A stretch of DNA of 64,000 nt from contig JACKNF010000001.1 in the NCBI GenBank assembly GCA_024234995.1, forward strand, positions 353,622 to 417,621, read 5' to 3'. The stretch comes from Gammaproteobacteria bacterium. Its GTDB lineage: Bacteria; Pseudomonadota; Gammaproteobacteria; Competibacterales; Competibacteraceae. Under the pieces are notes generated by a model that was not told where the DNA came from, searched no databases, and saw only the letters and a program-made list of their open reading frames with translations. The translations under genes were made by a program, and so were the position numbers. Positions 29,290 to 55,468 of this stretch are shown piece after piece (the stretch's first letter is position 1; the number at the start of each line of letters is the position of its first letter).

Positions 29290-30529
29290 ACAATGACCAT
29301 TTATCTTGTCGGCGGTGCTGTCCGTGACGCGCTGTTGAACCTGCCGGTTAAAGAACGGGACTGGGTCGTGGTCGGCGCTACTCCGGACGACTTGCTGACT
29401 CGTGGCTTCCGTCCGGTTGGCAAGGATTTTCCGGTATTCCTGCATCCGGAAACCCATGATGAATACGCCCTGGCGCGTACCGAACGCAAGACCGCGCCGG
29501 GCTATCATGGGTTCCACGTCCACGCGCGCTCCTGAGGTGACTCTGGAGGATGATTTGCAAAGCGCCGTGACCTTACCATCAATGCCATGGCGCGTGATGC
29601 GCAAGGTCAATTGATCGATCCCTATCACGGCGCCCGCGATCTCGAAGCCCGTTGGTTGCGTCATGTGTCGCCAGCCTTTGCTGAAGACCCGGTGCGAATT
29701 CTTCGCGTGGCCCGCTTTAGCGCCTGTTATGCGTCACTCGGCTTCCGGGTTGCACCGGAAACCCTGGCTCTGATGCGAGACATGGTCGCCAGTGGCGAAG
29801 TTGATCACCTGACGTCAGAACGGGTTTGGGTGGAAACTGTGCGCGCATTGGGCGAATCGCGTCCCGAGCGATTCATTGAAACTCTGCGCGCGACTGTGGC
29901 GCGCTGGCGCGCATTTTTCCGGAGCTGGACGCTTGTTCGGCGTACCGCAGCCTCCCGCGCATCATCCAGAAATTGACACGGGCGTCCATACACTGATGGC
30001 CTTGGCCCAGGCGGTACGGCTAGGCGCGCGGATGCCGTGACCCGTTTCGCGGTGTTGGTTCACGATTTCGGTAAGGGGAATGACTCCATCTGAAGAATGG
30101 CCGCGTCATCTCGGCCATGAAGATCGCGGCGCCGATCTGGTACGCACCTTCTGCCAGCGGCTGCGGTTCCTAACCTGCACCGGGAACTGGGGTCCTCACC
30201 GCCCGTTATCATACGCATTGCCATCGGGCGTTAGAGTTACGCCCAAAACCCTCCTCAAAATTCTGCAAGGATTAGACGTCCTGCGCAAACCGCAGCGCTT
30301 TGAACAGTTCTTGCTGGCTTGCAGAAGCGGATGCCCGGGTCGCCTGGGACTGGAAAACCGGAATTATCCCCAGGCAGATCTGTTGCGACGTATCTATCAA
30401 GCTGCATCCAGCATCCAGGCGCGACCGTTGATGGAGCAAGGTTTAAGCGGGCTGGCGCTGGCCGAAGCCTTGCGGCAAGAACGGCTGGCGGCAATTACTG
30501 CTAAGCGACAAGCATTTGAAACGTGTTAA
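29290..30529 (+). pseudogene. cca: CCA-adding tRNA nucleotidyltransferase, full length but with at least 5 frameshifts
   Basis: Pieces lying in three frames are collinear with E. coli Cca ([15 protein letters not shown]...; RDLTINAMA...[16 protein letters not shown]; EEWPRH.GH...; KPQRFEQ). Frame changes fall near 29520, 29556, 29935, 30020 and 30075. Confidence 0.8.
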
Positions 30530-30537
30530 TGTAGCGC

Positions 30538-30770
30538 TTGACCCGCACTTTTTCTGGTTATAATCCGCCACCCTATGAACCAGAAACTTCGTAACCCCAT
30601 TTTTATCCGTGGCTGACCGGTATTCACCGGCGGTACGCGGTTGCGTGTCAGCGATGGATCTGACGTAGATCCTGCGAGATTCAGCTCGGAGGGTCCTTGC
30701 CAGGCAGCCCTCCGGACGGGAATATAAGAACCCCGGTCGGCGGTGCGCCGACCGGGGTTTTGTTTTTTCT
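30538..30770 (+). ncRNA. Candidate small RNA: consensus sigma70 promoter to strong intrinsic terminator with no ORF
   Basis: The -35 TTGACC (30538-43) and -10 TATAAT (30559-64) have a 15-nt spacer. The terminator is ccccggtcggcggtgcgccgaccgggg plus TTTTGTTTTTT (30721-30770). A GGAGGG...CCCTCC hairpin lies between. Confidence 0.3.
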
Positions 30771-30888
30771 GCAACTTGTTCGAAGCAGCCCCGCTGCTGC
30801 ACAGCGGTACCGGTTCTGAATGCCGGTCTGGCGCGCTCACGCTAACCATCGCACGGCGTGTATCGGGCGGCAGCGGGACTTCGAAGCG

Positions 30889-30961
30889 AGGAAAGTAGCT
30901 CAGTGGGTAGAGCAGCTGATTCATCATCAGTCGGCCGAGGGTTCAACTCCCTCCTTTTCAC
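30889..30961 (+). other. tRNA-like element (CAT anticodon) / degenerate tRNA, followed by a tRNA 3'-half-like segment to about 31010
   Basis: It folds as a cloverleaf with D-stem GCTC/GAGC and T-arm GAGGG-TTCAACT-CCCTC. There is a 1:72 mismatch, a pyrimidine at position 37 and no CCA. Downstream lie GGCCCTCAACGGGCC and TGCGGTTCGAATCCGC (T-loop signature). Confidence 0.3.
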
Positions 30962-31426
30962 TGGTTAAGGCCCTCAACGGGCCTGCGGTTCGAATCCGCT
31001 TGGATGCCACAAGCATCCCTCCTCGCAACACCCGGGAGCCGTCCCGGCGGGCGGTTGTTGACCTCGCGTTTCGGCGTGATGTTGATGGCTGGCCTGCAGC
31101 GCCTGCGTGACCTTGCGCGGCGGGCAACGGGTCGGTGCCAATGATTGGCCAGCCGGCCGCAGCGAAAGCAGGCAAGGATGCCTCGCGTTGCAGCCTGGCC
31201 CGCCGGTGATCCGCCCGGTCTGCCCCGTCGCCCGCTGCATGGGCGTGGGGCGCGCTTCCAATTCTTTCAACCTGATTATCAACTCAGCCGGCGGGAGCCG
31301 TTCTTAATGACATCCTGACGTTCGGCAGTGGCGGGCCAGAAACGGTGCCGATAGCAACACGCCACGCTCAACCGCTGGATACGGCGGAACAGGAAGACCC
31401 AAAATACATTTATAAGGAGAACCAAG

Positions 31427-32575
31427 ATGTTGGGTTACCAACGAATCATCATTGCCCAAAACGAGCGTGGGCTTCACTTCTATAACCGCCGGTTGGTGGC
31501 CATTCTGGAACCGGGGGTCTACCGCTGGTTCGATCCGCTGCGTCATCATGAGGTGCAGCGCTACGATCTGACTGTGGCTGAGTTCAACCATCCGTGGTTG
31601 GATGTGTTGTTGCAGACCGATCCGGTTTTGGTGGAACAACACTTCCAAGTCGTGGAAACTGGTGAACACCAGGTTGGCTTAATTTACAAGAACGGTCGCC
31701 TGGAAGGCGTATTGCCGCCAGCAACCCGGCAGGCTTACTGGCGTGGCCCGGTCGAGGTGAAGGTAGAGATGCTTGACACCGGTACGGACTACGCCCTGTC
31801 ACGGGCGCATGCTGCCCTACTGGCCCGGCCTTCGGCAGCGCTGGCCCGGAACCTGAACGGCTTTATCCTGGCCACCGAGGTTGAAGATAACCACGTTGGC
31901 TTACTGTTGGCCGATGGTGAACTGGTACGCACCTTGCCGCCTGGTCTGCATGCCTTCTGGCGCTTCAACCGGGTGATTAAGGTGGAAACTGTGGATCTGC
32001 GTTTGCAGACCGTGGAAGTCTCTGGTCAAGAAATTCTGACCAAGGATAAGGTCAGCCTGCGCGTTAACCTGTCGGCAGTGTATCGAATCGCCGATCCAGT
32101 CAAGGCGCGGAGCGAACTGGGCAACATCGCTGAATACTTGTACCGGACCTTGCAATTCGGTTTGCGGCAGGCCATCGGCACCCAGCCGCTGGATAGTTTG
32201 CTCGGCGACAAGGACGACTTGGATCGGGTCGTGCGGAACTACGCAGCGGAACGGATTGAGCCGCATGGATTGGTAATGGAGACGGCCGGCATTAAGGATG
32301 TGATCCTGCCCGGCGAGATGAAGGATATTCTCAACCAGGTAGTAACCGCCGAGAAAGCAGCGCAGGCCAATGTCATCCGCCGGCGTGAGGAAGTCGCCGC
32401 CACCCGATCGCTGCTCAACACAGCGAAGCTGATGGAAGAGAACCCGGTTCTGCTGCGCTTAAAGGAACTGGAAGCGCTGGAAAAAGTGGTGGATAAGGTC
32501 GAGCGGCTGACTGTGTTTGGTGGCCTGGATGGCGTATTGCGCGATACAGTGCGCATCAATCTGCCGGCCCATTGA
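31427..32575 (+). CDS. SPFH/band-7 (slipin-like) domain protein with an N-terminal triple beta-repeat region
   Basis: The C-terminal half has the SPFH pattern (VSLRVNLSAVYRI.DP...LRQAIG...L). The frame is intact. Confidence 0.75.
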   Translation: MLGYQRIIIAQNERGLHFYNRRLVAILEPGVYRWFDPLRHHEVQRYDLTVAEFNHPWLDVLLQTDPVLVEQHFQVVETGEHQVGLIYKNGRLEGVLPPATRQAYWRGPVEVKVEMLDTGTDYALSRAHAALLARPSAALARNLNGFILATEVEDNHVGLLLADGELVRTLPPGLHAFWRFNRVIKVETVDLRLQTVEVSGQEILTKDKVSLRVNLSAVYRIADPVKARSELGNIAEYLYRTLQFGLRQAIGTQPLDSLLGDKDDLDRVVRNYAAERIEPHGLVMETAGIKDVILPGEMKDILNQVVTAEKAAQANVIRRREEVAATRSLLNTAKLMEENPVLLRLKELEALEKVVDKVERLTVFGGLDGVLRDTVRINLPAH

Positions 32576-32661
32576 GGGTGTGTATATAGTGACCCTCACC
32601 CATGCCTCTCTCTCGCGATCGGGAGAGAGGCTTTGATGCTGCTGCCGAGAGCCGAACATAC

Positions 32662-33925
32662 ATGTCTAGCACCATCGCGATGTTATTGCTGGGTCTGGGA
32701 ACGCTATTGGTGGGGAATGGCCTGCTCGGTACTTTGCTAGGCATCCGGGCACGGCTGGAAGGCTTTACGAACACTGCGATTGGTACGCTGATGGCGGCCT
32801 ATTTTCTGGGTTATGTGGCGGGTACTTTCCTGGTCCCGGCCTTGATCCGGCGGGTGGGTCATATCCGCACCTTCGCTGCACTGGCAGCGATGGGTTCGGT
32901 ATCTGCGCTGTGCTACGGGCTGATCGTGCATCCGGCCGCCTGGGCAGTGTTGCGGATGATAACAGGTATCGCAGTGCTAGGCGTCTATATGGTGGTGGAA
33001 AGCTGGCTCAATGAACAGGCGCCGCACCACATTCGCAGTCAGGTCTTCGCGATCTACATGGTCGTGACGCTGGTTAGTCTGGCTGCTGGGCAATATCTGA
33101 TCCTGACAGGCGATACGGGTGCCCTGGTGCTTTTCGCCATCGCTTCCATACTGTTCACTTTAGGATTGATGCCTATTGCCACCACCCGTATCCATGCCCC
33201 TCAACCGCAGGCATACTCATCGGTAAGCCTGCTTCATCTATTCTGGCTAGCGCCCTTGGCCGCTTGCGGTGCATTCATAGCCGGTATTGTCAGCGGTGCT
33301 TTCTGGAGCCTGGGCGCAGTGTTCGCACAGCGGATGGGCTTGCCGGAAGAAGGTATCGCCTTATTCATGAGCGCCACCATTATCGGCGGCGCGTTGCTGC
33401 AATGGCCCATTGGCCGGCTGTCCGACCGTTATGGCCGGCGCTTCATACTCACCACGGTCAGCTTCGCCGCCGCCCTGGTGGTGCTGCTGGCGCTACAGGT
33501 GATGTATGAATCGCTGGCAGCGCTGATAGTTTGCGCTTTCCTGTATGGCGGGCTGATGTTCTCGGTCTACAGTCTGAGCGTAGCGCTCATGAATGACCGG
33601 CTGAGCGCACCGGGGATGTGCTGGATGCTACGCGCGGTTTGTTGTTGATCTTTGGCATAGGTTCGATTGCCGGGCCGGCAATCGGTGGCCCGCCCGGCGG
33701 ATGGGTTTGGGCCTGGCACTATCCCTGCCCACTCAGCCGCTTGGCTGGGTCTGCTACCAGTTTGCTGGGTCTGATGCGTTTGGTTTTGGCCAAACCGGTT
33801 CCTCTAGTACAACAGGGTCGGTTTGTGCTCATGGTGCGCACCACACCGGTGGTTTGGAGATGCTGCCGCAGACCGATGTTCAACCCGAACTGGATCTGCC
33901 GCCCATCGAAAGATTCCTAAGATAA
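32662..33925 (+). pseudogene. MFS transporter with frameshifts in the 3' fifth
   Basis: It has 10 or more predicted TM helices. The C-terminus continues in two other frames (33618.. and 33701..). Confidence 0.65.
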
Positions 33926-33978
33926 GGTTTATCAGCAGCTAAACTTCAAGAGCGATTCAACATTTCGGAGAAGCACTC

Positions 33979-34992
33979 ATGATTCGAGCCTACGCCGCCC
34001 ATGAAGCCAAAGGCAAACTCACGCCGTTCGAATACGATCCTGGCGAACTGAAGCCGGATCAAGTCGAGCTGGATGTCATTGCCTGTGGCATCTGCCATTC
34101 GGACCTCTCCGTCCTGAATAATGAATGGCAAAACAGTGCTTATCCTTTAGTGCCGGGTCATGAAGCCGTCGGCACGATCGCCCAGACCGGCAGCAATGTC
34201 AAACACCTAAAGGTCGGCGACACGGTTGGTTTGGGCTGGTTCAGCGGCAGTTGCATGATCTGCGACCAATGTATGAGCGGCAATCACAATCTGTGCGCCA
34301 GCAGTGAGCAAACGATCATCAGCCGCCACGGCGGGTTCGCTGATAAGGTGCGTTGCAATGCAGAATGGGCGATGCCGTTGCCAACCGGATTGGATGCAAG
34401 AAAAGCCGGGCCGTTGTTCTGCGGCGGCATTACCGTCTTTAACCCTATTGTTCAGTTCGATGTGAAGCCCACCGACCGGGTTGGGGTGGTCGGCATTGGC
34501 GGATTGGGCCACTTGGCCATCCAGTTTCTGAACAAATGGGGCTGTGAAGTGACGGCATTCACCTCCAGCGAATCCAAGCGGGACGAAGCTTTGGATATGG
34601 GTGCGCATCAAGTTGTCAATTCCCGCAACGAGGGGCAACTGGAGAAAATCGCCGGCTCGCTGGATTTCATCCTATCGACTGTCAATGTTGATCTGAACTG
34701 GCCAGCGTTTCTGAATGTTCTAGGACCGAAAGGACGGCTGCATACGGTTGGAGCGGTACTGACACCTATTCCTGTTGCGGCATTTTCGCTGATCACCGGT
34801 CAGAAGAGCGTGGTATCCGGTTCGCCGCTGGGTTCTCCGGCGACTATTCGCAAGATGCTGGATTTCTGTGCCCGGCATCGGATCGCACCAGTAACCGAGC
34901 ATTTTCCGATGAGCCAGGTCAATGAAGCGCCAGCCCGTCTGGAGGCCGGTAAAGCACGCTATCGCATTATTTTGGAAAACGATTTTACCTAA
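33979..34992 (+). CDS. Zinc-dependent NAD(P) alcohol dehydrogenase (cinnamyl-ADH/YahK-like)
   Basis: It has the GHE zinc motif, the CGICHSD structural-zinc Cys cluster and a GxGGLG Rossmann motif. The frame is intact. Confidence 0.85.
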   Translation: MIRAYAAHEAKGKLTPFEYDPGELKPDQVELDVIACGICHSDLSVLNNEWQNSAYPLVPGHEAVGTIAQTGSNVKHLKVGDTVGLGWFSGSCMICDQCMSGNHNLCASSEQTIISRHGGFADKVRCNAEWAMPLPTGLDARKAGPLFCGGITVFNPIVQFDVKPTDRVGVVGIGGLGHLAIQFLNKWGCEVTAFTSSESKRDEALDMGAHQVVNSRNEGQLEKIAGSLDFILSTVNVDLNWPAFLNVLGPKGRLHTVGAVLTPIPVAAFSLITGQKSVVSGSPLGSPATIRKMLDFCARHRIAPVTEHFPMSQVNEAPARLEAGKARYRIILENDFT

Positions 34993-35787
34993 TCCCAATC
35001 ACCCCATAGCGCTTGCAAAAGCCGCCAGCGCCGCAACGCCGGCGGTTTCGGTGCAGCACCCGCGGGCCCCAAGCGGATGCCAGTAAATCCAGTTCTGTGA
35101 GCCTGGGCAATCTCCGCTGGGCTCAAACCGCCTTCGGGGCCAATGAGGAGTGTCACGGTTCCGTGGGTGGTTCCAGTCTGCGCAAGCCTTGTTTTGCCAA
35201 TGGATCGAGCAACAAGCGCAAGCATTCTTGAACGTCTTCCTCGATTGCTTCACCTCCCTCTTTAACCCTCCTTTACGGGGAGGCGGGAAAGAGCCGTTCA
35301 GCTGTTGCCAGCCACTGGATCAGTGGCAGTGGTTCCCGTAATTCCGGTAATTGATTGCGTCCGCATTGCTCACAGGCGCCGATTACAATGCCGCGCCAGT
35401 GCTGGATCTTGCGTATCAACCGCTCACCGGCTAAATCAACCCCGCTGCGTTTCGCAAACAGCGGTTGGATCGCGGCAACGCCCAATTCCACGGCTTTCGG
35501 AGGGTGTAATCCATCTTTTCACCGCGTGAGATGCCTTGCGCCAGCGTCACCTGCAAAGGCGATTCAGCCTCGCCAGGTAAGGCGCTGGTTACTTGCACCC
35601 AGGCTTCTCGCTTGCTGACTTCTAGCAATTTTGCTGCAAATGTTCCGCCTTGGCCGTTGAACAACGTCAGAGGTGCATCTGGCTTGAGCCGTAAGACGCG
35701 CACTGCATGATTAAAGGCATTCTCATTCAGCGGCAGGGTCATACCGGCTGCTAGCGGGACCGGGAGGTAAAGTCGAGGAACACGCAT
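34989..35787 (-). pseudogene. rsmE: 16S rRNA (uracil1498-N3)-methyltransferase RsmE, in 3 frames
   Basis: The pieces MRVPRLY.P.PL...RVLRL; ...IAACEQCGRN..PE.R; and LLIGPEGGLS..EI match RsmE blocks in order. Confidence 0.8.
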
Positions 35788-36189
35788 GTCGATGTGAATC
35801 CAGAAAATCTTGACGGGCGGTTAATGATATTGCTGTCCGCCAAATTTCACTGCACACCGCAGCCGCTGACTGCGGACGGCCTAAAACTTTGAACGAGATG
35901 GCGCCCGGCGGGATGCAGCCAGTCCAACTGTTTCGCAGTCTCGACCTCTTCTGCTCCTGCGTCAAAGCGCATTGCTGCATCTTAGGCCAGGATTTTGATC
36001 ATCCGGCCCATACGGCTAAAAAGGGCAATTACTAGAACCATATCGCTACAAAGTTTTCAGCAATGGCTTGCAGCGTGCCAGCTGCGACAGACTGCAGCGT
36101 TGTTCAGGATAGTCACTCTTGCGGAAGATGGTTCGCCTAAGCCAATGATTCGATGCTGCTGTGTCTCCCGCAAGGTGCCATTACCCCGA

Positions 36190-37347
36190 TCAGAGGGCTT
36201 CGGCATAGATCGTTTTTGATATCTGCGGGCTGGCGCGGCGTGGATTAGTAAATAGGCAGGCGTCACGGCTCGCCGGTGGAGCCAGATCAGTAATCGTGCT
36301 GGCGTTGACGCCACGCGCTGCCAGACCCTCATGAACCCCGCAAGCTTTGCGGAGGTTTTGCAATGTCTTTGTAATCTGTTTTTCCCGGACGGCCGCTGGC
36401 GCACCAGCAAGGGACACGCCGAGGGCTTGGCCGATACGCTGGTAACGCTCCTCGGCAGCGGGATAATTGAAACGCAATACATGTTCAAGCAGCAAGGCGT
36501 TACTTTCGCCGTGTGGCAGATCCAAATAGCCGCCCAGGCTGTGTGCCATGGCGTGGACTGCGCCAAGACTGGCATTGGAAAAGGCCAGGCCGGCGTGCAG
36601 ACTGGCCAGCATCATATTCTCGTAGGCCACTAAGTTAGCGGGATTGGAGACTGCCGGCAGAAGATAGTCGCGGACCAGCTCAATTGCCGCTAAGGCGTGG
36701 ACATCCAGCACCGGCGAATTTGCAGTGGAAACATAAGCTTCAATGGCATGTGTCAATGTATCAAGCCCGGTGCAGGCTATGAGATAAGGATCAAGGGTGG
36801 TGATGGTTTCCGGGTCCACCAATGATACGTCCGGTACTACGCTCTTGCTAACAATAGCGATCTTATAGCGCTGCACTGTGTTATTGATGATAGCAAACTG
36901 TGAAATGTCGGCAGCAGTGCCAGCGGTGGTGGGGATGCAGATCAGCGGTGGCCCTGGTTGCGGGATGCGGTCGACGCCTTCATAGTCCAGGATATGGCCA
37001 CCATTAGCGGCAACAATGCCGATGCCCTTAGCGCAGTCGATAACACTGCCGCCACCCAACGCCATGATAACGTCACAGCCTTCGTCATGATAAATGGCAG
37101 TGCCGGCCATAACTTCGTAATCCCGAGGGTTCGGTGTGACGTCATGGAACACGACCGATTGCAACCCGCTTTCTTCCAAATCGGCGAGCAGCTCGTTCAA
37201 CCAGCCCGCGCGGATGATGCCAGGGTCGGTGACGATCAATACGCGCCGGGCTTGCAGATTCCGAGCGTAGAAACCGGCACGCTGCCGTGAGCCAATGCCG
37301 AAAATAAACTCGGGTGCAACAAATTTGCGCAAGTCGTAAAGTGGCAT
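36190..37347 (-). CDS. Iron-containing (group III) alcohol dehydrogenase
   Basis: GGGSVIDCAKG and His-rich metal-site blocks are present. The 385-aa frame is intact. Confidence 0.85.
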   Translation of the reverse strand: MPLYDLRKFVAPEFIFGIGSRQRAGFYARNLQARRVLIVTDPGIIRAGWLNELLADLEESGLQSVVFHDVTPNPRDYEVMAGTAIYHDEGCDVIMALGGGSVIDCAKGIGIVAANGGHILDYEGVDRIPQPGPPLICIPTTAGTAADISQFAIINNTVQRYKIAIVSKSVVPDVSLVDPETITTLDPYLIACTGLDTLTHAIEAYVSTANSPVLDVHALAAIELVRDYLLPAVSNPANLVAYENMMLASLHAGLAFSNASLGAVHAMAHSLGGYLDLPHGESNALLLEHVLRFNYPAAEERYQRIGQALGVSLAGAPAAVREKQITKTLQNLRKACGVHEGLAARGVNASTITDLAPPASRDACLFTNPRRASPQISKTIYAEAL

Positions 37348-37559
37348 GGTCCCTCCTTTGCGTCGGGCCGATAGCTCTTACAATAGTATCCAATTTTTCT
37401 GCCCTGCAATGGAGGGTTGCAAGAGGCAGTTTTCAGCATAATAACCTTTATAAACTTCCTGTATTTTAATAAAGCTCTTTAATAAAGCTTAGCGGGTATT
37501 TGAGGAATGAAAAGGGATTGATCTGGGATTAGACACTTGAAAACCATTTTGGGAGAACC

Positions 37560-38060
37560 TGACTTGACTGAAACACTACTGATTCTTGCGGCTGGCAACC
37601 CTAGTCGGGGTGATGACGCCTTGGGACCCTGCTGTTTCTGGAGCACTTGATGGTTGAGCAGGAACAGCGTAACGGCTGGGGATATGTTGAGTTGCTCACC
37701 GACTTTCAGTTCCAGATCGAACATGCAGCCGATTTAGAAAACCGGGCGCTGGCACTGTTTGTCGATGCCAGCGTAAGTTGTCCAGGACCCTACCAATTCA
37801 CTCTTCTTCAACCCATCCGGGACACCAGCTATACCAGCCATACGCTGTCGCCCGCTGCTGTGCTGTATGTCTCACCAGCAAATTAACCATCTCCACCTCC
37901 ACCGGCGTTTCAATTGGCGATTCGCGGCGAAAGTTTTGAATTGGGTGAACCATTAAGCACGGCGGCGAACGCAAACCTTGCGGCAGCCCTAGAATTTGCT
38001 GGCCGGTTATTGGCGATGCCAGATGATGAGACATGGCGCCGGTTTGGCGGAAATCCATGA
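37560..38060 (+). pseudogene. [NiFe]-hydrogenase maturation endopeptidase (HyaD/HybD/HupD-like) relic
   Basis: The N-terminus LLILAAGNPSRGDDALGP, a mid-section in a second frame (VELLTDF...VDA..C.GP) and a C-terminal ...SHTLSPAAVL ... ELGEPLS match protease blocks. The structural hydrogenase genes are absent. Confidence 0.5.
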
Positions 38061-38220
38061 AAATTTCCTATCTTAACCAAATGGTTCATCAACCCCTTGC
38101 GCGGGTGAACCAGCAGGAGATCAGAGTATTTACCATCGTGCTGGATCGCCGACCGTACCATCTATGCTGGTATGGATGAGATATGGGAGGATGATTTTAG
38201 CCTAATGTACCCTGAAAGAT

Positions 38221-38830: not shown

Positions 38831-38836
38831 GCCTTC

Positions 38837-40601: not shown

Positions 40602-40604
40602 GGC

Positions 40605-44312: not shown

Positions 44313-44325
44313 GGTCGCCAACGCC

Positions 44326-45544: not shown

Positions 45545-45592
45545 GACGGAGTTTGCTCTAGCATTGAATGGTGATCATCGATGAACAGCGTG

Positions 45593-46561
45593 CTAACTCC
45601 GTGTTTCCCATTGCCAGGCATGTGCAATGATGGTTGCCAGATCGGCATAGCGTGGCTTCCAGCCCAGTTCCACGCGCACCCGTTGGCTATCGGCTACCAA
45701 GCGTGCTGGATCACCAGGTAAAAGCGTTCGCCATATTGGACCGGGATGCCGCGCCCCGTGACGGTGCGGGCGGTCTCGATGACCTCCCGACCGAGAAGCC
45801 GTTGCCATTTCCCAGGTTATAAGCCGAGCTGCCTCCGCCATCCCACAGTCGTTGTAAGGCCAGCAAATGCACTTCGCACAGGTCATTAACGTGGATATAG
45901 TCGCGGATGCAAGTACCATCCGGGGTGTCGTAGTCATTACCAAACACGGTGATGTGTGACCGGCGGCCATTAGCGGCCTGTAAGACCAGTGGGATAAGGT
46001 GTGTTTCCGGGTTATGGCGCTCACCTAGCTCACCTTCTGGATCAGCCCCGGCAGCGTTGAAGTAACGAAGGCAGATTGATTTCAGGCCATGCCGTATCGT
46101 AATCCTCCAGCATTTGCTCGACCATCCATTTGCCACGGCCGTAGGGGTTGATAGGTTGCTTGGGATGGCCTCTCGCTGATCGGTATCCGCACCGGTTCGC
46201 CGAAAATAGCCGCGGTGGATGAGAAGATGAAATAGGGCACTCGCTGCGCCACCATCACGTCTAGCAGATTTTGGGTTTTGAATACGTTATTGCGGTAATA
46301 CTTGGCTGGTTCCCGTACTGATTCGCCTACCTGGATATAGGAAGCGAAGTGCATGACCCCGTCGAAACGGGTTTTCCGGCATAGATCTTCTAGGATGTCG
46401 CGTTCAAACAGGTCGCCCAATACAAACCGCGCTTCCCGCACCGAATCCTGATGTCCGGTGGATAGGTTGTCCAGCACCGTCACCTCAAACCCGCGTTGAA
46501 CCAGCAGCTTTACCATGTAGGAACCGATATAGCCCGCTCCACCGACGACAAGCACATGCAT
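45593..46561 (-). pseudogene. galE: UDP-glucose 4-epimerase GalE in 3 or more frames
   Basis: The blocks MHVLVVGGAGYIGSH; YRNNV..T..LL; [23 protein letters not shown]; and DPA.LVADS.R...ELGW.P are present. Confidence 0.85.
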
Positions 46562-47141
46562 CGTCCTTCCCTCGCTTTTCAGTACACCCTGTTTGAATGG
46601 CTTTGATTGGGTAAGCATAGACCACGCACTGCTTACTGGACTCGAAAGTCTGATGTTATTATCAGTGATATAGTATCAAAAGATATGCAAATGGCTTTCA
46701 AGATGAAACACATCCTTCAGGATACATGATGGGGAGCAGGTATCGGCGATTTTGGAGTTGTTGCAGGAAGAGGAGACACGCTCGAATGGGCTAGATTTTC
46801 GGGTGTTGTGCCGGTATCAGGGTCGGAGGTGGAGACGACCGGTTGAGCGAAACACAGTTTCGATAGCCGGGCTAAGTCTATCTAGTTTTTCATGTGATAA
46901 TTCAATTCCTTAACCGGAACCAGAGAGGGATTAGTCATGCCATTGTTCGTAAAGTCGCGCTGATTAATTAACTGTGTTGCAGGCAATGGTTGATCTAACT
47001 GAGTTTCTTTTTTCTCAGGGGCTAAGGCTGCTTGAATAGGAGCTTTCTGGGGCATTTGCAGGGTCACCGGAAACCGCCAGATCGTCGCTGGTTCGCGTAC
47101 ATAGGCAAGAGTCTCGGCTTATTGTTGATAAATTAGGTGAT

Positions 47142-47267
47142 TCACCTAGCGTCGACGATGAATAAAAGTTGAGACTTCTGCGGCAAGGGAATCCAGTAGG
47201 AAACCGCAGCCAGCGCCATGGCTAGCACCAGAATGATAATCTGTTTGCGGTGGATTTGCGTGTTCAT
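47142..47267 (-). CDS. Hypothetical 41-aa membrane peptide
   Basis: ATG-initiated ORF MNTQIHRKQIIILVLAMALAAVSYWIPLPQKSQLLFIVDAR inside a 1.26-kb AT-rich region with few ORFs. Confidence 0.15.
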   Translation of the reverse strand: MNTQIHRKQIIILVLAMALAAVSYWIPLPQKSQLLFIVDAR

Positions 47268-47882
47268 CAAAACCAGCTCCAGTGGCTCAATCCTAAATAG
47301 TTCAATTCTAAAATGACTTGTTGCGTATTTGATCTGTTAAAGAGCAGAAATCGTACCTGATTTATGGGTTGCCTTAATATTATTTTTTAACTGTATGATT
47401 TTAAATCATATAAATATATGGCTATCTATAGCCAGGGGCCATTTTGGTCATCAATCTCTACGTAACAGATGACGGCTGAAAACAGCTTGACTGACAACCT
47501 TTACCAAAAGCGACAGAATCGGATCTTAAAATAGGCCAATTTGGCCCGATATAGAAATTTCCAGGGCTTGGCGTCCAAATTTGCTATGATGATAATGGCT
47601 TAGCATGTATAAGGAAATCATGCGGTAATTAGATATTTATTTATATAAAATAAATAGTTGCTTACACTATAATTATGACTAAGGCAAAATCCTAACTTAG
47701 AAGTTCAACGTAAACATTCAATCCCTTCGCCCCTACTAAGGGAGAGAGGACGAGAGTAAATGGTAAATCCTTGAAACGGTTGCCATCATCTTCCAGCCCA
47801 TCGCCCGCAAGCAGGCGATGGGTGTGAACGGTTACAGTTCAACTTTATCCTGTTCCCTGCCAACTTGGGACCTGCCCTGCCA

Positions 47883-49850
47883 TGCAGTCCGAATTCGTCA
47901 ATGCACTATTCGCTTGGGTAGCCGCTCACCCAGGTTGGATGAGTACTGTCATTTTTATCACCGCCATGGCGGAATCGCTGACCATTGTCGGCGTTATTAT
48001 TCCCGGCGCTTTGGTGATGTTCAGCCTGGGGCGTTGATCGGTCTTGGTCACTTGGAATTTTTGGACGGCCTATTGGTGGTCGACCTGGGGCGCTATTGCT
48101 TACGATGCCATCAGCTTCTGGATCGGCCGGGTGTTTCATCAAGGCATCCGGCAAATCTGGCCGTTTACCAAGCACCCTGAAATGATCATCCGCAGCGAGG
48201 AATTTTTCCGTAAACACGGCGGTAAGGGGTGTTATTAGGCCGGTTTTTCGGTCAGTACGCGGCACGATCCCTACCGTGGCTAAGCATGATGGACATGACG
48301 TGGCGCCGCTTCATGATCGCAAATGTCATTTCGGCAATTCTGTGGGCGCCAAACATCTGATTCCTGGCATGGCTTTCGGTGCATCGCTGGACATCGCCTC
48401 CCGCGTAGCTGGGCGGTTAGTGGTGTTAATTTTGATCATCGCTGCGCTGTTATGGCTCACCACCTGGTTGGTAACTCACGGTGTGCGATTGTTCCAAGCC
48501 CACGCGACCGATTGGTTACAACGATTCACTGTATGGAGTCGAGGCTTATGGCGTTTTATTGGCCCGATCAGCGCTTCGCTGCTTGATCCTCGTGAGGGTG
48601 AATTACGCGGGTTGGCGACTCTGGCAATCTTGCTGCTGGGGGCTGGTCTATTGAGTCTGAGCTCTGAGCGCTGCTTACTTAAGCAATTACCGAGCGGCCT
48701 GGATCAAAGTCTCTATCACTTTTTTCAGGAGTTGCGCACCCCTTGGGGCCGATGCCCTGATGGTGTTCACCACCGAGCTGGGCGACTACCATGTGACCCT
48801 CCCGGTGAGTCTGGTGGTATTCATCTGGCTGATTTGGCGGCACAACCACTCAGCCGCTTGGCACTGGCTGGCGGCGCTAGGCTTTGCATGGCCACTAACC
48901 TGCTGTTCCGCGGGCTGTTACCGGTGTCCAGTCCGGTTGAAGCGGCGCAAGGGGGTGCAAGGTTATTCATTTCCCTCCAGCCATGCCACATTCAGCACCT
49001 TGGTCTTCGGTTTCTTGGCGGTGCTGGTTGCCCGGGAAATCCCATTGGCCCGCCGCTGGTTTGTTTATCTGGCAGCAGCGTTCCTGATCGTGCCGATTGC
49101 GTTTGCCCGGCTGTATTTGGGTATCCATTGGCTGACAGACACCCTGGCGGGTTTGTGCCTGGGATTGATCTGGGTAACGGTGCTCGGCATCGCCTACAAT
49201 CGCCATCCTAAGGCGGCGCTTCAGTGGCGTGGATTGTTAGCCTACAGTGTGATTGCGCTGCTGGCGACCGATCTGTTGCACGTCAGTCTCGACTATCAAG
49301 CCGATCTGCGGCGCTATCAACCGCAAACCGTGCTGCATACCCAGACGCGGGACCAGTGGTGGCAAAAAGGCTGGCGGGAGCTTCCCCAGCAGCGGGCTGG
49401 ATTTTCAGGGCCATCACCGGCAAGATTTGGTCTTGCAATGGGCGGGAACACGCGAACAACTGGAGCAGCGTTTATGGGAAGCAGGCTGGCAATTGGCGCC
49501 GAAGGCGAGTTTAAGAGCATGCTGCTTTGTTGAGTCCTCAGGCCGACCTGCGTGAATTGCCGGTGCTGCCGCAACTCCACAAGGGCCGTGAGGACGAATT
49601 AACCATGGTGTATTACAGTGATGATCCTAAGACTCGCTGGTTGCTGCGGTTTTGGGATGCCGGTGAGCGCTTGCGGGAAGGTGGTCTGCCGGTCTGGGTC
49701 GGCAGCATCAGTCAGCAGAAACGCGAACCCCGGATGAGTCTATTCACCTTAGCCGTGGACAATCCGCTATCCCCTGTCCGAATCGATTTGCTGGCCTCCG
49801 CTTGGCGGGGGTTTGCAGGTTCGGCAGGTCACAGGCTCCAATTCCAATGA
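47883..49850 (+). pseudogene. DedA-family / PAP2 phosphatase / LssY-C-like fusion membrane protein in 5 or more frames
   Basis: DedA blocks (IIPGALVMFSLG; FWIGR.F....R) are followed by a PAP2 domain (SFPSSHATFS...RLYLGIHWLTD) and a C-terminal domain in further frames. Confidence 0.65.
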
Positions 49851-49887
49851 ACGGATCACCTTGATTGCCGACTGAGAGGGTTGATTA

Positions 49888-50433
49888 ATGTTAATGAGAG
49901 TTGAAACCTCTTGCCTGCTGGCGGTGGATTTCCAGGAACGGCTGATGCCTGCTATCCACGATGCTGATTGCCTTGTAGCCAATGGCGCTTGGTTGATCCA
50001 GATTGCCCAGCGGCTGAAGGTGCCAGTGCTGGCCTCGGAACAATACCCGAAAGGATTGGGCCATACAGTGGCGGCAATTCGTGATTTGCTGCCTGCGGAG
50101 GCATTTATGGAGAAAATGCATTTCTCCTGCGCTGCTGAGCGGGATTGCATGCGGCGCATCGATGCGCTTGGCTGTCAACAGATTATCGTCATGGGCGCCG
50201 AAGCCCATGTCTGTGTGTTGCAAACCGCGCTGGATTTGCGGGCGGTAAGCGGCGATATCTATCTGGTCGCCGACGCGGTTTCATCGCGGTCGCCGCGTGA
50301 TGTGGAGCTAGCGCTGGAACGGATGCGCGCCGAGGGGGTGCGCGTGGTGAGCCGCGAAATGGCCGCCTTCGAGTGGCTGCATCAGTCCGGCACTGATCAA
50401 TTTCGCGAGATTAGCCGTGAATTTCTCCGTTAA
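49888..50433 (+). CDS. Isochorismatase-family hydrolase
   Basis: The blocks LLAVDFQ and IIVMGAEAHVCVLQTALDL match the family. The frame is intact. Confidence 0.8.
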   Translation: MLMRVETSCLLAVDFQERLMPAIHDADCLVANGAWLIQIAQRLKVPVLASEQYPKGLGHTVAAIRDLLPAEAFMEKMHFSCAAERDCMRRIDALGCQQIIVMGAEAHVCVLQTALDLRAVSGDIYLVADAVSSRSPRDVELALERMRAEGVRVVSREMAAFEWLHQSGTDQFREISREFLR

Positions 50434-50487
50434 TTTTAGCCGGTAAGGTCAATTTTCCGATTCGTATCTGCATAGGTAACATGCTTC

Positions 50488-51754
50488 ATGGCTCATGCTT
50501 CTTCTCTCGCTCCCGCGCCGTCCCTGTATCGCCGTTCGCGTCGGTCAAGTAACGGTCGGTGGTAACGCGCCCATTGTGGTCAGTCGATGACCAATACCGA
50601 TACCGCTGATGCGAAGGCGACAGCCAGCCAAGTGGCCCGAATTAGCCCAGGCCGGTTCGGAACTCGTGCATCACCGTTAACACCGAGGAAGCCGCCGCCG
50701 CCGTGCCGGTCATCTGTGAACGGCTGGCGGCGCAAGGCGTGACCGTTCCACTCATTGGCGATTTCCACTTCAATGGCCATAAATTGCTGCGCAAATATCC
50801 CGCTTGTGCCGGGATGCTAGACAAATACCGCATCAACCCCGGCAATGTCGGGCGCGGCAGGAAGAAAGATGAACAGTTCGCCACGATCGTCGACATCGCC
50901 TGCCGTTATGATAAGCCGGTGCGGATTGGAGTGAACTGGGGCAGTCTGGATCAGGAACTGGCGGTCCGGTTGATGGATGACAACGCGCGGTTACCGGTAC
51001 CGGCGCTAAGCAGGCCAGAGTGATGCATGAGGCGATGATCCTTTCAGCGCTGGAAAGCGCCCGGCGGGCTGAAGACATTGGCTTGGCGCATGACAAGATC
51101 ATCTTGTCGGTGAAGATGAGCGGGGTGCAGGATTTGATCGCGGTCTATCGCAAGCTGGCAGTGCGTTGCGATTACCCGCTGCATCTTGGGTTGACCGAAG
51201 CTGGCATGGGCAGCAAGGGCATCGTGGCTTCTACCGCTGCGCTGGCGGTGTTGTTGCAAGAGGGCATTGGCGACACCATTCGCATTTCGCTGACACCGGA
51301 ACCGGGCGGTGACCGCCGCCAGGAGGTCATCGTCGCCCAGGAAATCCTGCAAGCAATGGGTCTGCGTTCTTTCACGCCCCAGGTAACAGCCTGTCCCGGT
51401 TGCGGGCGTACGAGCAGCGACTATTTTCAGCGCCTGGCTCAAGACATTCAGCATTATCTCCGTCAACAGATGCCGGTGTGGCGCGAGCGTTATCCGGGGA
51501 GTCGAAGCGTTGAAAGTGGCGGTGATGGGCTGCGTGGTCAATGGTCCTGGCGAGAGCAAGCAGGCGCGCATATTGGCATTAGCCTGCCCGGCACCGGTGA
51601 AATTCCAGTGGCGCCGGTTTATGTCGATGGCGAGAAGACAGTAACCCTGAAAGGCGAAAGCATCGCCGCTGAGTTCCAGCAGATCGTAGCGGATTATGTG
51701 GTCCGGCGTTACACACCTCATCTTAGCAACTCCTCGCAAGAGATCAGGGAGTGA
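50488..51754 (+). pseudogene. ispG: 4-hydroxy-3-methylbut-2-enyl-diphosphate synthase IspG/GcpE; first about 530 nt carry about 6 frameshifts and the last 730 nt are intact
   Basis: The N-terminal blocks VGGNAPIVVQSMTNTDT / ELV.RITVNT / IGDFHFN / RINPGNVG lie in alternating frames. Downstream, [20 protein letters not shown] and ACPGCGRT are in one frame. Confidence 0.85.
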
Positions 51755-51779
51755 TGCTGATTTTGCTATAAGTTCCCCT

Positions 51780-53307
51780 ATGACCGGTTTGGCCCCCCTC
51801 TCCGCAAATCTCCCCAAGGTAGAAGATCACCTGCAACACATCGTCAAGCTGCTGGAAAAGCATCGGTTGATCGAAACGATGGTCGATCGCGACCGGGTCA
51901 GTCCCCGCCATGAGCTGATCGAGTCACTGATACATCGTCAGCACTTAGTTGAATTGCAACTCAAATTGCGCAGCCTGCACCCGGCTGATATTGCCTTCAT
52001 TCTTGAGGCATTGCCGCTGAATGACCGGCTGATGGTCTGGCGGCAGATGCAGGATGAGCAAGGGGTGAGGTATTACTTGAAGTTTCGGATGCGGTGCGGG
52101 ATTCGCTGATCGAGGTATTGATCGGCCAACCCTGGTTCGGGTATTGAGTCAGCTTGATGCTGATGATTTGACCGAACTGGCTGATGTGGTTAGCGAAGAT
52201 GTTCTGACGGACGTCTTGCTGTCGTTGAATGCCCGTGACCGCGACTGGTTGCAGACCACCATGGCCTACGCCGATGACCGGGTAGGCCATCTGATGAGTC
52301 AGGATGTCCTCACGGTGCGCGAGAGTCAGCGGGTTGAGCAGGTATTGTGGCTACTGCGCGGCCGGGACGATTTGCCAACCAACACAGACTGCCTGTTTGT
52401 CGTGGACGCCCGCCATTTGCTCAAGGGTGTGTTGCCGTTGCGAGCACTGCTGCTTAATGATCCACAGACGCCGTTAACGCAGCTGATATTGACTGATCCA
52501 GTGGTCTTCAACGCGATTGACAGCGCTGATGATGCAGCCCGGGCCTTTGAACGTTACGATCTGGTATCAGCGCCAGTGGTCAACGAGCGGGGCAAGCTGG
52601 TAGGCTTACTGACAGTGGATGAAGTGATGGACTATATCCGCGAAGAATCGGAAGAAGATGTGCTGAATATGGCCACCTGCGCGGCGATGAAGATTTGTTC
52701 GCGCCGATCTGGGACAGCGCCCGTAACCGCTGGTTGTGGCTGTCGGTCAATCTCTGTACCGCATTCATCGCCTCGCGGGCGATTGGTCTATTTGAAGGTA
52801 CGATTTCGCAACTCGTTGCCTTGGCTACGCTGATGCCAATTGTTGCGGGGATTGGCGGCAATTCCGGTAATCAAACCACCGCCCTGGTGGTCCCGCGGCC
52901 TGGCGTTAGGTGAAATCACCCCGGCGAACACCTGGCACTTGGTCTTCAAGGAATTGGGAGTCGGGCTGCTCAACGGCATGGTTTGGGGAGCGACCGTGGG
53001 ACTGTTCACCTGCCTGTTATACTGGAGCCTGCCATTGGGAGGGGTCATGGCGGCGGCGATGCTGCTAAACCTGCTGCTGGCGGCACTGATGGGCGTCGCC
53101 ATCCCATTGGTTCTGCACCGCCTGGGCCGTGATCCGGCGCTGGGTTCGAGCGTGTTGCTGACCTTCATCACCGACGGTATGGGGTTTTCATCTTTCTGGG
53201 GCTGGCGACGGTGTTTTTGCTGTAAGCCTTGGCGGTTAATAAGGAGTCCTGCGACGGATTGGCGGCAGACCACCTACAATCATATCGGTTTCATCGATAG
53301 ATTCTAA
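51780..53307 (+). pseudogene. mgtE: Magnesium transporter MgtE in 4 or more frames
   Basis: An N-domain (LHPADIAFILEALP), CBS pair, and TM domain (LATLMPIVAGIGGNSGNQTT...; FITDGMGF) are spread over three frames. Confidence 0.8.
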
Positions 53308-53348
53308 AATGATGGCTGCTATTACCCCTACCAACGCGAGGTTATGCA

Positions 53349-55468
53349 ATGGCTGATGTTTTTAACCGCATTTTGCGGATCGAACTCCCTGAAACGCTGG
53401 AATGCGACAAATCCGGAAAAAATCCGGCCTTTACCCTCACGTTCGTCGCCGATGGCAAGGTCCCCATTCCCGCAGGTGATCCTGCATGCGCCGGATGGGC
53501 AACACCTGATTACGGGCGATGCGCTCGAAGAAACAGTCGTCGAAGGCGATTATCACTACACCGCCAGTATTCCCGCTGGGCTGCTGTGGCCCAATACCAT
53601 CACCGTGCAGGCGGAAGGCTGCCGCAAGGCCGATATTCAACAGGCCAGCGGCAGCGACTGGATCAAGGAATTTCACCAGCTGCGCATCGTGCCGAATGTC
53701 AAAGCGCAACCTGTCATCCGGGTAGCAACAGGGCCAGGCGACACGCCAGTCAAGCTGTATTTTGGCATCCACAAGCACATGCACCAGCCTTACTACAACG
53801 TGACGGACCAGTACTACTGGGATGGCGAAAAGGACGGTATTTTCGGCGCGCGCGGCGGTCCCCTACACTCATTTTATTCCGGCTGCCGCGCGTCAATACA
53901 TCAACGGCGGCTTGCCTCACGCCGGTTTGTCCACCAGTTGGAGCGGTTCACTGATTGAGCAACTGGACCGCTGCGCCGCTGATGGCCTGTGCGGTGGACG
54001 GTTCAGCGGCTGGAATAACGAACTGCGCGCCATCGCACAGGAAAAAACCGGGTTGGGCCCCCGTGTGGATTTCGTCGCCTTCGGTTTCTTCCATCCGCTC
54101 ATGGCGCTGATCCCTGGCCGGAACATCGTCAAGCAGGTCGAATGGCACCGGAATATCATCCGCTCGGCATTTGGCGTAGAAGCCTCCAGCGTGATGTTCC
54201 CACCGGAAACCGCCTTTCATATCCGTATGATTCCGGCGCTGAATCAGGCCGGTGTCAAGGCGGTGATTTACGACTCCATCCATCGTTTCCGGGCATGCAA
54301 AGACTATCCTTACGCCGGAATCAACGAAGGCATGCTGCCGCCCAATCCCGCTGAGCAGGTCAATCCACCCGTTAACGACTGGCTGCAACTGAATAATATC
54401 TGGGCGGGATCGAAAATTTCGCCGAGTCTGCTGAAACCTGAATACGTGCAATACGAAGATCCAGAGGGAGAGATTCACAAAATTATTGCTGTGCCGGCAG
54501 AGCGTTATATCGGTAATGAGGATGCGCGCGGCGGCTTTGGCGCATTGCAATATCCAGATGTATTAGGACAGGTCTATAACCGGATCGTCGATACCGGCTC
54601 TTTTGATCCCAAGCATCCGCCATTCTTCCTGCTGCATTCCGACGGTGACAATCACGGCGGTGGCGCTGACAGCTATTACAATCATAATACGGGGGAAATG
54701 GTCCGATGGTTGCAGGGTGATCCGCGTTTCGAGCTAACCTCGGTTCATGATTACCTGGATCGTTTTCCACCTGATCCCGCACAGGCGGGGCATATCGAAC
54801 CCGGTTCCTGGAGCGGCGCTGATAATGGCGACCCGCAGTTCATGAAGTGGTTCAGCCGCTACGATCAACCTTACTCGCCTGATCTAAATTCCTGGGCGGT
54901 GCTGACCGCTTTGCAGAATGTGGTGCATTCCCTGGAAGATGCGGGTCAGTCAGGGCTGGACGACATTAGTTGGCTGATGCTGGCTGCCGAGACCAGTTGT
55001 TATTGGTACTGGACTGGGCAAACAGTGTGGGATCAACAGGTAACCAATGCGGCTAACCAAGGCTATCGCATGGTCAAGAGCCATGTGGATGCATTGCTCG
55101 CTGCTGGCAAGGATCGCACCGGGCCGGCCATTTTTGCGCCGTGGGTGACGCCGGAAAATCCCGGCGGCAAACGTTGGGGCCAAGGTTGTTTGCTGGACGC
55201 GCCGCGTGAGGGAACGGTGCATACGTTCGTCTATGACATCAGCGGGTTGAAGCGGGTGACGCTGGTGTTGCGCGATGCTCAGGGTGAAACACGCTTGGCG
55301 ATGACTGATAACGGACTGTATCCTACACAGACCGGTGCGGTCATTACTGGAAATTACTACACCGCTAAGCTGCCGGTTGGTGCTGGCGATGTGCGCTACT
55401 ACATCGAGGCGGAAGACGCCAAAGGCAACATCTCCCGTGGGGCATTAGAACGGGTGTATTTGGCGTAG
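53349..55468 (+). CDS. Glycoside hydrolase family 57 domain protein; 2 frameshifts in the first about 520 nt, then 1.6 kb intact
   Basis: The GH57 motif KLYFGIHKHMHQPYY is present. The N-terminal part is split at about 53465 and about 53860. Confidence 0.65.

Follow-up and report, generated by a model that had tools for sequence, protein, structure and literature searches.

A 24.5-kb tract of apparently broken genes in a Competibacteraceae contig is very likely an uncorrected long-read consensus

In the 64,000-nucleotide stretch of a Competibacteraceae contig that was analyzed here (the window), gene after gene between positions 29523 and 54058 is broken by small indels, and the error spectrum of this tract, together with the intact state of its genes in more than ten independently obtained short-read assemblies of this bacterium, makes it very likely that we are dealing with an assembly artefact, i.e., an uncorrected long-read consensus of the nanopore type, and not with gene decay. 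The limits of the tract (24,536 bp) are set by the first (29523/29527) and last (54058) differences that are specific to the window in comparison with 32 near-identical short-read loci. A frameshifted tract of about 24 kb, as described in an earlier note on this DNA, is thus real: it contains 135 indels, compared with none in the approximately 37 kb of flanking sequence (2372-29500 and 54100-64000), where three substitutions were counted. In the ORF map, long ORFs extend up to 29176 and resume from 53822 on, with fragmented ORFs between them.

The reference loci were taken from short-read contigs that represent 16 or more samples or MAGs, all belonging to the same Competibacteraceae population (sources: megahit, SPAdes, JGI, NCBI assemblies GCA_020445025.1, GCA_035399465.1, and GCA_040774745.1, and Logan). 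Their identity to the flanks of the window amounts to 99.9-100%, with no mismatch over 8-10 kb in several samples, e.g., ERZ27309108. A difference was scored as window specific where all covering reference loci agree among themselves against the window; this assignment is weaker at 34824-36584, where only one or two loci provide coverage, and positions 33924-34823 are without a covering near-identical contig. The comparison with the closest relatives, which the earlier note had proposed, revealed loci that are collinear with the window and in which every gene of the tract is intact and full length, i.e., those for Cca, the MFS protein, RsmE, the Fe-dependent alcohol dehydrogenase (Fe-ADH), UreEDABC, the SpoIIE phosphatase, RsbW, the PPTase, GalE, the DedA-PAP2 protein, the isochorismatase, IspG, MgtE, and the GH57 glycoside hydrolase. 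Both tract boundaries lie within continuous short-read contigs (the one at 29.5 kb in locus L001, the one at 54 kb in L092 and L102). None of the approximately 260 lesions is common to the window and any reference from these 16 or more samples, with an identity of 99.9-100% in this population outside the lesions.

The indels comprise 65 insertions and 70 deletions with a net gain of 4 bp, and they are small throughout (1 bp, n = 107; 2 bp, n = 21; 3 bp, n = 7); no difference larger than 3 bp was found in the tract in the census against the 32 loci, in agreement with the earlier observation that the genes keep their length and collinearity and lack large deletions. The estimate of about 40 indel sites was too low by far, and the impression that stop codons derived from substitutions are almost absent has to be corrected as well. 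The tract carries 125 substitutions, mostly transitions and private to the window, which are nearly as common as the indels (indel-to-substitution ratio of about 1.1 to 1, with insertions about as frequent as deletions), and some of them create TAA stops (GCCGGC to GCTTAAGC or GCTAAGC). The distribution of the errors is patchy over 29.5-37.6 kb, where error-free blocks of 1-3 kb lie between the affected patches, and continuous over 37.6-54.06 kb, with a density of about 12.5 differences per kb (Table 1).

Table 1. Genes, error patches, and clean blocks of the tract (positions in the window; indels and substitutions relative to the reference loci)
Feature	Positions	Strand	State in the window	Form in the references
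cca (tRNA nucleotidyltransferase), apparent pseudogene	29224..30529	+	13 frameshifting indels, 8 substitutions	433 aa, intact in L001 and L003-L008
Zn-ADH ORF	33979-34992	+	intact, 337 aa, full-length ADH_N and ADH_zinc_N matches	
rsmE	34989-35787	-	7 frameshifting indels	266 aa in L092
Fe-ADH	36190-37347	-	+1/-1 indel pair at 36217/36227, 10 bp apart, 4 residues garbled	
ureE, ureC, ureB, ureA, ureD, apparent pseudogenes	38313..42348	-	4, 14, 3, 4, and 9 indels, respectively	156, 582, 105, 100, and 364 aa, intact in L092-L099
dCache-HAMP-SpoIIE (RsbU-like) phosphatase, apparent pseudogene	42377..44329	+	8 frameshifting indels	652 aa, intact
RsbW-like anti-sigma kinase, open ORF with errors	44326..44775	+	5 substitutions, 3 amino acid changes	
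PPTase and galE-like epimerase, apparent pseudogenes	44838..46561	-	6 and 4 indels	270 and 322 aa, intact
DedA/VTT-PAP2-LssY_C membrane protein, apparent pseudogene	47882..49875	+	18 indels, 17 substitutions	663 aa, intact
Isochorismatase, open ORF with errors	49888..50433	+	6 substitutions, 3 amino acid changes; includes GCCGGC to GTAAGC at 50245	
ispG and mgtE, apparent pseudogenes	50488..53225	+	8 and 7 frameshifting indels	420 and 483 aa, intact
GH57 glycoside hydrolase	53349..55468	+	5' 0.7 kb affected, remainder clean; 3 indels (53462, 53860, 54058), 5 substitutions, none beyond 54058	706 aa, intact in L102-L107
Error patch 1	29523..30633		cca and 5' part of a 118-aa minus-strand ORF; 16 indel entries, 7 substitutions	all 10 covering loci differ from the window
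Clean block	30634..33610 (2,978 bp)		SPFH/Band-7 gene and most of the MFS gene; no window-specific differences; GCCGGC intact at 7/7 sites	
Error patch 2	33611..33902		MFS gene 3' end; 5 frameshifting indels, 7 substitutions	MFS protein 439 aa in L001 and L006
Probably clean block, partly verified	33903..34930		Zn-dependent alcohol dehydrogenase; GCCGGC at 34651 intact	
Error patches 3 and 4	34931..36247		rsmE, intergenic region, Fe-ADH 3' end	1-2 covering loci
Clean block	36248..37604		most of Fe-ADH; no window-specific differences; GCCGGC at 36589, 36653, and 37102 intact	
Continuous error stretch	37605..54058 (~16.5 kb)		104 indels, 103 substitutions	
Corrupted-motif example	40294..40301		GCTTAAGC	GCCGGC in 8/8 references

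Several of the ORFs that had appeared intact from the sequence are in fact affected by length-neutral errors. The SPFH gene is truly clean, its protein being identical to public copies, and the Zn-ADH gene is probably clean, with no indels in 34000-34500 relative to UBA2383, a qualification that reflects the missing near-identical contig for comparison. Errors were found in the genes for the RsbW-like kinase, the isochorismatase, and Fe-ADH and in the 3' part of ispG, where insertions of +1 and +2 located 68 bp apart garble about 23 residues. The changes in the RsbW-like protein stem from GCCGGC to GCTTAC conversions at 44370 and 44527; the exact protein of the window was not found in the public collection, the nearest one being 98% identical. 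The label "hydrogenase protease", which had been given to a 169-aa ORF, could not be upheld: Pfam yields no match for this ORF, even when the intact version is used.

The earlier note had also proposed to sort the indel sites by sequence context, and sorted in this way, the differences cluster at GCCGGC, GGWCC, and homopolymers. GCCGGC is altered at 26 of the 27 reference sites located at 40.2-53.9 kb in the continuous stretch (binomial p = 4.5e-31 against background), with the site at 45186 as the only one spared, compared with 0 of 19 sites outside this stretch, i.e., in flanks and clean blocks. The altered forms (GCTTAAGC, GCTAAGC, GCTTAC, and GTAAGC) are either reverse-complement pairs (GCTTAC/GTAAGC and GCTAAGC/GCTTAGC) or, in the case of GCTTAAGC, a palindrome, which recurs in place of GCCGGC at 40311 and 40719. 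GGWCC is altered at 14 of 28 sites in the continuous stretch versus 0 of 7 in the flank, and 11 of 17 G/C homopolymers of at least 5 bases are shortened there versus none in the flank. Homopolymer errors are mostly deletions and rise with run length, with miscall rates for G/C runs of 8% (length 3), 16% (length 4), 54% (length 5), and 100% (length of at least 6, 4/4), so that runs of at least 5 bases are nearly always shortened; 373 homopolymer runs in the flank are without a single miscall. About 45% of the differences (116/260) fall outside these three systematic classes; the substitutions among them are predominantly transitions (52/62), and some of the 116 may be true private SNPs. Two GCCGGC sites (33674 and 35038) are unaltered despite their position inside error patches, which indicates that the first 8 kb of the tract may be partly corrected or differ somewhat in history.

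To judge from the error spectrum alone, which is also the basis for the platform and the polishing history assumed here, the source reads were most likely generated with Oxford Nanopore technology from native methylated DNA. GCCGGC and GGWCC would be methylated in the source organism by restriction-modification methyltransferases of the m5C or m4C type; the modified bases would distort the pore current, and an untrained basecaller would then turn C into T and G into A, with bases gained or lost in addition. Such a motif error would recur in every read and for this reason could not be removed by a long-read consensus. The flanks and the few internal blocks of 1-3 kb would have been corrected or taken from short-read contigs. 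The local character of the error island points to a failure of local polishing or gap filling, with long-read gap filling between short-read contigs, a failed polishing chunk, and a loss of short-read mapping to a competing duplicate strain contig as candidate causes. Localized consensus error in an unpolished long-read segment, one of the explanations offered in the earlier note, is strongly supported, the genes being intact in independent short-read assemblies and the differences being clustered at the two motifs and in homopolymers.

The other explanation offered there, true and recent inactivation of a block of genes in a decaying segmental duplicate or in a host-restricted lineage under relaxed selection, with the essential functions supplied elsewhere, is extremely unlikely and was rejected. 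It would account for full-length, collinear genes that carry small indels alone, several of which would be essential (ispG, cca, rsmE, and mgtE), and the breakage of many adjacent genes with conserved synteny is reminiscent of the reductive genomes of Mycobacterium leprae and Sodalis. Real decay is characterized by an excess of substitutions over indels, larger deletions, IS elements, and lesions that are shared within a lineage, and it does not depend on methylation motifs or homopolymers; unlike in M. leprae and Sodalis, none of these features is present in the tract. A preference for long G/C homopolymers, for 26 of the 27 GCCGGC sites, and for one half of the GGWCC motifs would not be expected from decay, nor would similar numbers of indels and substitutions in the absence of IS elements and of any deletion larger than 3 bp. 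Moreover, the locus is a single syntenic copy with intact genes on the short-read contigs that cross both of its boundaries, no lesion is shared with the other samples, and the edges of the tract are abrupt, with no lesions across 37 kb of flank apart from the three substitutions counted there. A biological, motif-targeted mutation that removed GCCGGC sites by deamination of methylated cytosines or by restriction-site avoidance is of practically negligible probability. The C-to-T and G-to-A changes in a presumably methylated palindrome do resemble m5C deamination, but this process would not explain insertions of 1-3 bp in essential genes, the joint alteration of both inner C/G pairs, the restriction to one 16-kb stretch while the 19 other GCCGGC sites of the window are unaltered, the co-occurring errors in homopolymer length, and the absence of the changes from every other sample.

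Collapsed strain heterogeneity, i.e., spurious indels in a consensus across coexisting haplotypes, is a very improbable source of the errors, even though the population is mixed around 33.5-38.2 kb, which overlaps the patchy part of the tract: two reference haplotypes differ by about 10% at 33468-33923, and at least eight short-read assemblies are interrupted at 33467 or 33923 and start again between positions 34824 and 38232. The references are, by construction, monomorphic at all 260 difference positions, the error density peaks in the region of 42-54 kb, where polymorphism is low (0-10 sites per kb), and the dependence on motifs and homopolymers would be left unexplained. At most, strain heterogeneity may explain why the correction failed locally. 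There is likewise very little probability that the uncorrected consensus was obtained on a different platform with a high error rate (454, Ion Torrent, or low-coverage PacBio CLR). Such platforms also produce small indels, errors in homopolymer length, and balanced length changes, but random insertions account for most PacBio CLR errors, and those of flow-based platforms are nearly restricted to homopolymers. The nearly complete conversion of GCCGGC to GCTTAAGC, GCTTAC, or GTAAGC, which combines substitutions with insertions, is typical of basecalling in which base modifications alter the current signal (PMC6591954 and PMC10687267).

An uncorrected nanopore consensus has close counterparts in the literature. 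About 70% of the errors in ONT consensus sequences were located in the Dcm methylation motif, most others concerned homopolymer length, and the total reached up to about 1.2% (Wick et al. 2019, PMC6591954). As with these Dcm CCWGG errors of Enterobacteriaceae, errors in putatively methylated motifs dominate here, followed by those in homopolymers, at a total of about 1%, and such errors are removed by accurate reads; in contrast, the motifs are GCCGGC and GGWCC instead of CCWGG, and the errors are not genome-wide but limited to a single 24.5-kb segment, outside of which the contig is clean. Modifications on which the basecaller was not trained cause recurrent motif-centered errors, e.g., at GCWGC, that cannot be fixed by a read-pileup consensus (PMC10687267). 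The GCWGC/GCTGG errors of Listeria are, like those reported here, lineage specific, motif centered, and exposed by close relatives (Chiou et al. 2023, PMC10687267), but they are reported mainly as mismatches, whereas the GCCGGC sites of the tract also gain or lose 1-3 bases, which results in frameshifts. Fragmentation of full-length, collinear genes into apparent pseudogenes by small indels is also known from long-read MAGs, as are tools for its repair (Sereika et al. 2022, PMC9262707; proovframe, 10.1101/2021.08.23.457338; Kastor, PMC12007338), where the errors are usually assembly-wide and do not form a local island.

As a by-product, the error spectrum provides an indirect indication that GCCGGC and GGWCC are methylated in the source organism; for both motifs, m5C methylation has been documented in bacteria (PMC11954522; PMC13321361).

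A six-frame ORF map of the window showed long unbroken ORFs at 1-29176 and from 53822 to the end, and short ORFs overlapping in different frames at 29176-53822, few of which exceeded 300 aa. In translations, frame-scattered pieces of cca, an MFS transporter gene, rsmE, ureEDABC, and the genes for a SpoIIE-type phosphatase and a PPTase were recognizable, and galE, ispG, mgtE and the genes of a DedA-PAP2 protein and a GH57 enzyme are likewise split over frames. The earlier note's description of the tract, with genes broken by many small frameshifts, is therefore correct. Its list of interspersed intact ORFs holds for the open reading frame, but not for freedom from errors in the case of RsbW, isochorismatase, Fe-ADH and the ispG 3' part, which are open because the errors there happen to preserve length. 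Three further ORFs of 169, 127 and 118 aa (lengths from intact references) are conserved, and their intact reference forms had no Pfam match; the label "hydrogenase protease" previously given to the 169-aa ORF is thus unsupported.

An exact-sequence look-up with the SPFH protein (31427-32575) retrieved 16 public contigs from megahit and SPAdes metagenome assemblies, JGI metagenomes and three NCBI MAGs, which align to window positions 21426-33923 with 99.1-99.7% identity and carry intact cca (433 aa) and MFS (439 aa) genes. The RsbW-like, Fe-ADH and Zn-ADH proteins of the window had no exact match in the public protein collection, in the case of Fe-ADH and RsbW because the window ORFs carry errors. 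A homology search with RsbW led to a 98%-identical protein, whose contigs align to 34824-54777 and contain the remaining affected genes in intact form (see table). Two more look-ups extended the reference coverage to 2372-64000, with a sole gap at 33924-34823. Since several samples matched the window flanks without a single mismatch across 8-10 kb (flank identity of the loci, 99.9-100%), the references represent the same strain population. A scan of metagenome contigs with the isochorismatase found only a 57%-identical locus, which was of no use as a reference. The closest GTDB species representative in a genome contig scan was the MAG UBA2383, which is intact and collinear at 26.6-39.0 kb with a nucleotide identity of ~93%; it served only as an outgroup, its divergence being too great for error calling. 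The UBA2383 contig is collinear with the window only at 26598-39012, and its positions 1-8355, which lie beyond that end (inside ureC in the window), are without similarity to the window. Either synteny is broken at the urease operon or the MAG contig is chimeric.

A position was counted as a window-specific difference if the window departed from at least 80% of the loci covering it. The census revealed 135 indels and 125 substitutions in the tract (29523-54058), but 0 indels and three substitutions in the flanks (2372-29500 and 54100-64000). The three flank substitutions are all located in the left flank at 12001-18000 and are probably genuine private SNPs of the strain. Of the tract indels, 65 are insertions and 70 are deletions (107 of 1 bp, 21 of 2 bp, 7 of 3 bp; net, +4 bp). 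They affect more than 20 genes as well as intergenic DNA and lie mostly at motifs or in runs of 3-6 bases. At these ~260 tract positions all covering short-read loci disagree with the window, and none of the lesions was found in other samples of the population, among at least 16 samples. Error patches and clean blocks alternate in the first 8 kb, followed by a continuously affected part. The last difference, at 54058, is an in-frame 3-bp deletion (CAT) adjoining GGCC in the GH57 gene; it is uncertain whether this is the tract's final error or a real variant, which places the right boundary between 53932 and 54058.

Structure of the error-bearing tract and state of its genes (lengths without a window position are those in contigs carrying the RsbW relative)
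Feature	Window position	Strand	Intact length (aa)	Observation
Error patch	29523-30633			patchy part, 29.5-37.6 kb
Clean block	30634-33610			patchy part
Error patch	33611-33902			patchy part
Clean block	~33903-34930			patchy part
Error patch	35017-35498			patchy part
Error patch	35857-36247			patchy part
Clean block	36248-37604			patchy part
Continuous part	37605-54058			~12.5 differences per kb
118-aa ORF	30573-30927	-	118	
169-aa ORF	37564-38076	+	169	
127-aa ORF	46882-47267	-	127	
RsmE			266	
Fe-ADH			385	+1/-1 indel pair, 10 bp spacing
UreE/C/B/A/D			156/582/105/100/364	
dCache-HAMP-SpoIIE			652	
RsbW			149	GCCGGC to GCTTAC at two sites
PPTase			270	
GalE-like			322	
DedA-PAP2-LssY_C			663	
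Isochorismatase			181	GCCGGC to GTAAGC
IspG			420	3' part: +1 and +2 insertions, 68 bp spacing; ~23 residues garbled
MgtE			483	
GH57			706	

The differences depend strongly on sequence context. GCCGGC ranked as the top 6-mer in an unbiased k-mer enrichment test and was altered at 26 of the 27 reference sites scored at 37.6-54.1 kb (p = 4.5e-31); none of the 19 sites located in the flanks and clean blocks was changed. In the raw alignments, the window writes the reference GCCGGC as GCTTAAGC, GCTAAGC, GCTTAGC, GCTTAC or GTAAGC. The second-ranked 5-mer, GGWCC (GGACC/GGTCC), was altered at 14/28 sites of the continuous part compared with 0/7 in the left flank. GCCGGC remained intact at 45186, 33674 and 35038 despite the surrounding error-bearing stretches, and GGWCC is only half affected; partial methylation, partial correction or context-dependent miscalling are possible reasons for such escaped sites. 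No claim is made for GGCC as a third motif, as about half of its matches overlap GCCGGC and the rest are weak (~11/90). Miscall rates of G/C homopolymers rose with run length, from 8% for three bases to 16% for four, 54% for five and 100% for six or more, with runs of at least five being shortened almost always, and A/T runs followed a similar but weaker trend. In the flank, 0 of 373 runs were miscalled. Together, GCCGGC, GGWCC and homopolymers of at least three bases explain 144 of the 260 differences.

Judged from these sequence comparisons, the tract is an assembly artefact, most probably an unpolished long-read consensus, and no pseudogene tract. The intact short-read loci and the motif and homopolymer errors thus bear out the first of the two explanations offered in the earlier note. 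The error spectrum matches that described for Oxford Nanopore consensus sequences, in which errors in methylation motifs form the majority, followed by homopolymer-length errors, with a total error of up to ~1% (Wick et al. 2019, PMC6591954). Where modifications were missing from the training of the basecaller, motif-centred errors recur and cannot be removed by read pileups (Chiou et al. 2023, PMC10687267), and both GCCGGC and GGWCC are documented m5C methylation motifs in bacteria (PMC11954522; PMC13321361). Since GCCGGC sites and homopolymers are perfect in the flanks and internal clean blocks, these must either stem from short-read contigs or have undergone correction with accurate reads. 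Unlike them, the tract would have been left uncorrected, possibly because a polishing chunk failed, a gap was filled with long reads, or short-read mapping was lost (e.g., to a competing contig of a duplicate strain). A 500-bp polishing-window grid does not fit the patch lengths of ~1110, at least 290, ~480 and ~390 bp obtained by inspection of the boundaries, and nothing specific on local failures of polishing in hybrid assemblies was found in the literature.

For this locus, we reject the second explanation, a real block of inactivated genes or a decaying duplicate. The tract is the syntenic locus itself, and contigs in which the genes are intact run straight into both identical flanks. None of the lesions recurs in any of at least 16 samples of the population, as inheritance among close relatives would require. 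Moreover, nearly equal numbers of indels and substitutions, a balance of insertions and deletions and a maximum indel size of 3 bp do not constitute a neutral spectrum, and gene decay does not yield the strong dependence on motifs and homopolymers. Real lesions would require a very recent event in a single strain, e.g., error-prone repair or replication, that was aimed at methylated motifs and homopolymers across 24.5 kb and simultaneously disrupted cca, ispG, mgtE, the urease operon and further genes, a scenario that we regard as extremely improbable.

Biological mutagenesis targeted to the motifs is contradicted by the insertions among the changes, by their limitation to one stretch and by the homopolymer errors alongside. 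Phase variation and programmed frameshifting were dismissed because the indels are not limited to certain genes with long simple-sequence repeats. Collapsed heterogeneity, also raised in the earlier note, is unlikely given that the references are monomorphic at the affected positions, and other error-prone platforms do not fit, since the rewriting of a palindromic 6-mer is not among their errors.

The reference loci are highly polymorphic around 33-34 kb and 40-41 kb alone and not throughout the tract; high polymorphism as the cause of failed polishing was discarded, since the two coincide only there. In at least eight assemblies, the near-identical short-read contigs all stop at 33467 or 33923 and start again only at 34824, 35379, 36585 or ~38120-38232. 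Heterogeneity and assembly breaks at 33467-38232 may be the reason for the patchiness of the first 8 kb, but do not account for the tract as a whole. The 900 bp at 33924-34823, comprising most of the Zn-ADH gene, are covered by no near-identical contig, and the exact Zn-ADH protein is publicly lacking, which suggests a repeat/paralog or a strain-variable segment beyond short-read resolution. At 33468-33923, the 3' end of the MFS gene, two reference haplotypes differ by ~10%; the window matches one of them, and reference locus L001 is among those with the divergent one. The divergence begins exactly at 33467, the end point of five contigs, which looks like a recombination boundary.

Downstream of the tract, the G+C content drops from ~55% to 40-46% at 55609-64000, a region that encodes several GT2 glycosyltransferases, an ABC-2 transporter pair, SAM methyltransferases and GtrA. 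This gene content resembles that of an ABC-transporter-dependent polysaccharide (O-antigen-like) cluster, which was possibly acquired horizontally. The region contains no errors and does not differ from that of other samples.

The error pattern points indirectly to putative GCCGGC and GGWCC methylation in this uncultured Competibacteraceae population; methyltransferases with such specificities are of the M.NgoMIV/NaeI-like and M.AvaII/SinI-like types. This hint of methylation, which is the sole biological information in the tract, is much more likely than the reading of real lesions, but modest. The main value of the finding is a warning. The sequence alone suffices to diagnose a locally unpolished island inside a contig that is otherwise clean, provided that near-identical public contigs are compared and that motif-specific corruption and run-length-dependent homopolymer errors are tested. 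In this record, some 20 genes would be called pseudogenes or missed entirely, among them the essential ispG, cca and rsmE as well as the complete urease operon. Pseudogene counts and completeness/quality metrics would be distorted, as would the metabolic reconstruction of a glycogen-accumulating wastewater lineage, to which "no urease" or the lack of a step in the MEP pathway would be ascribed.
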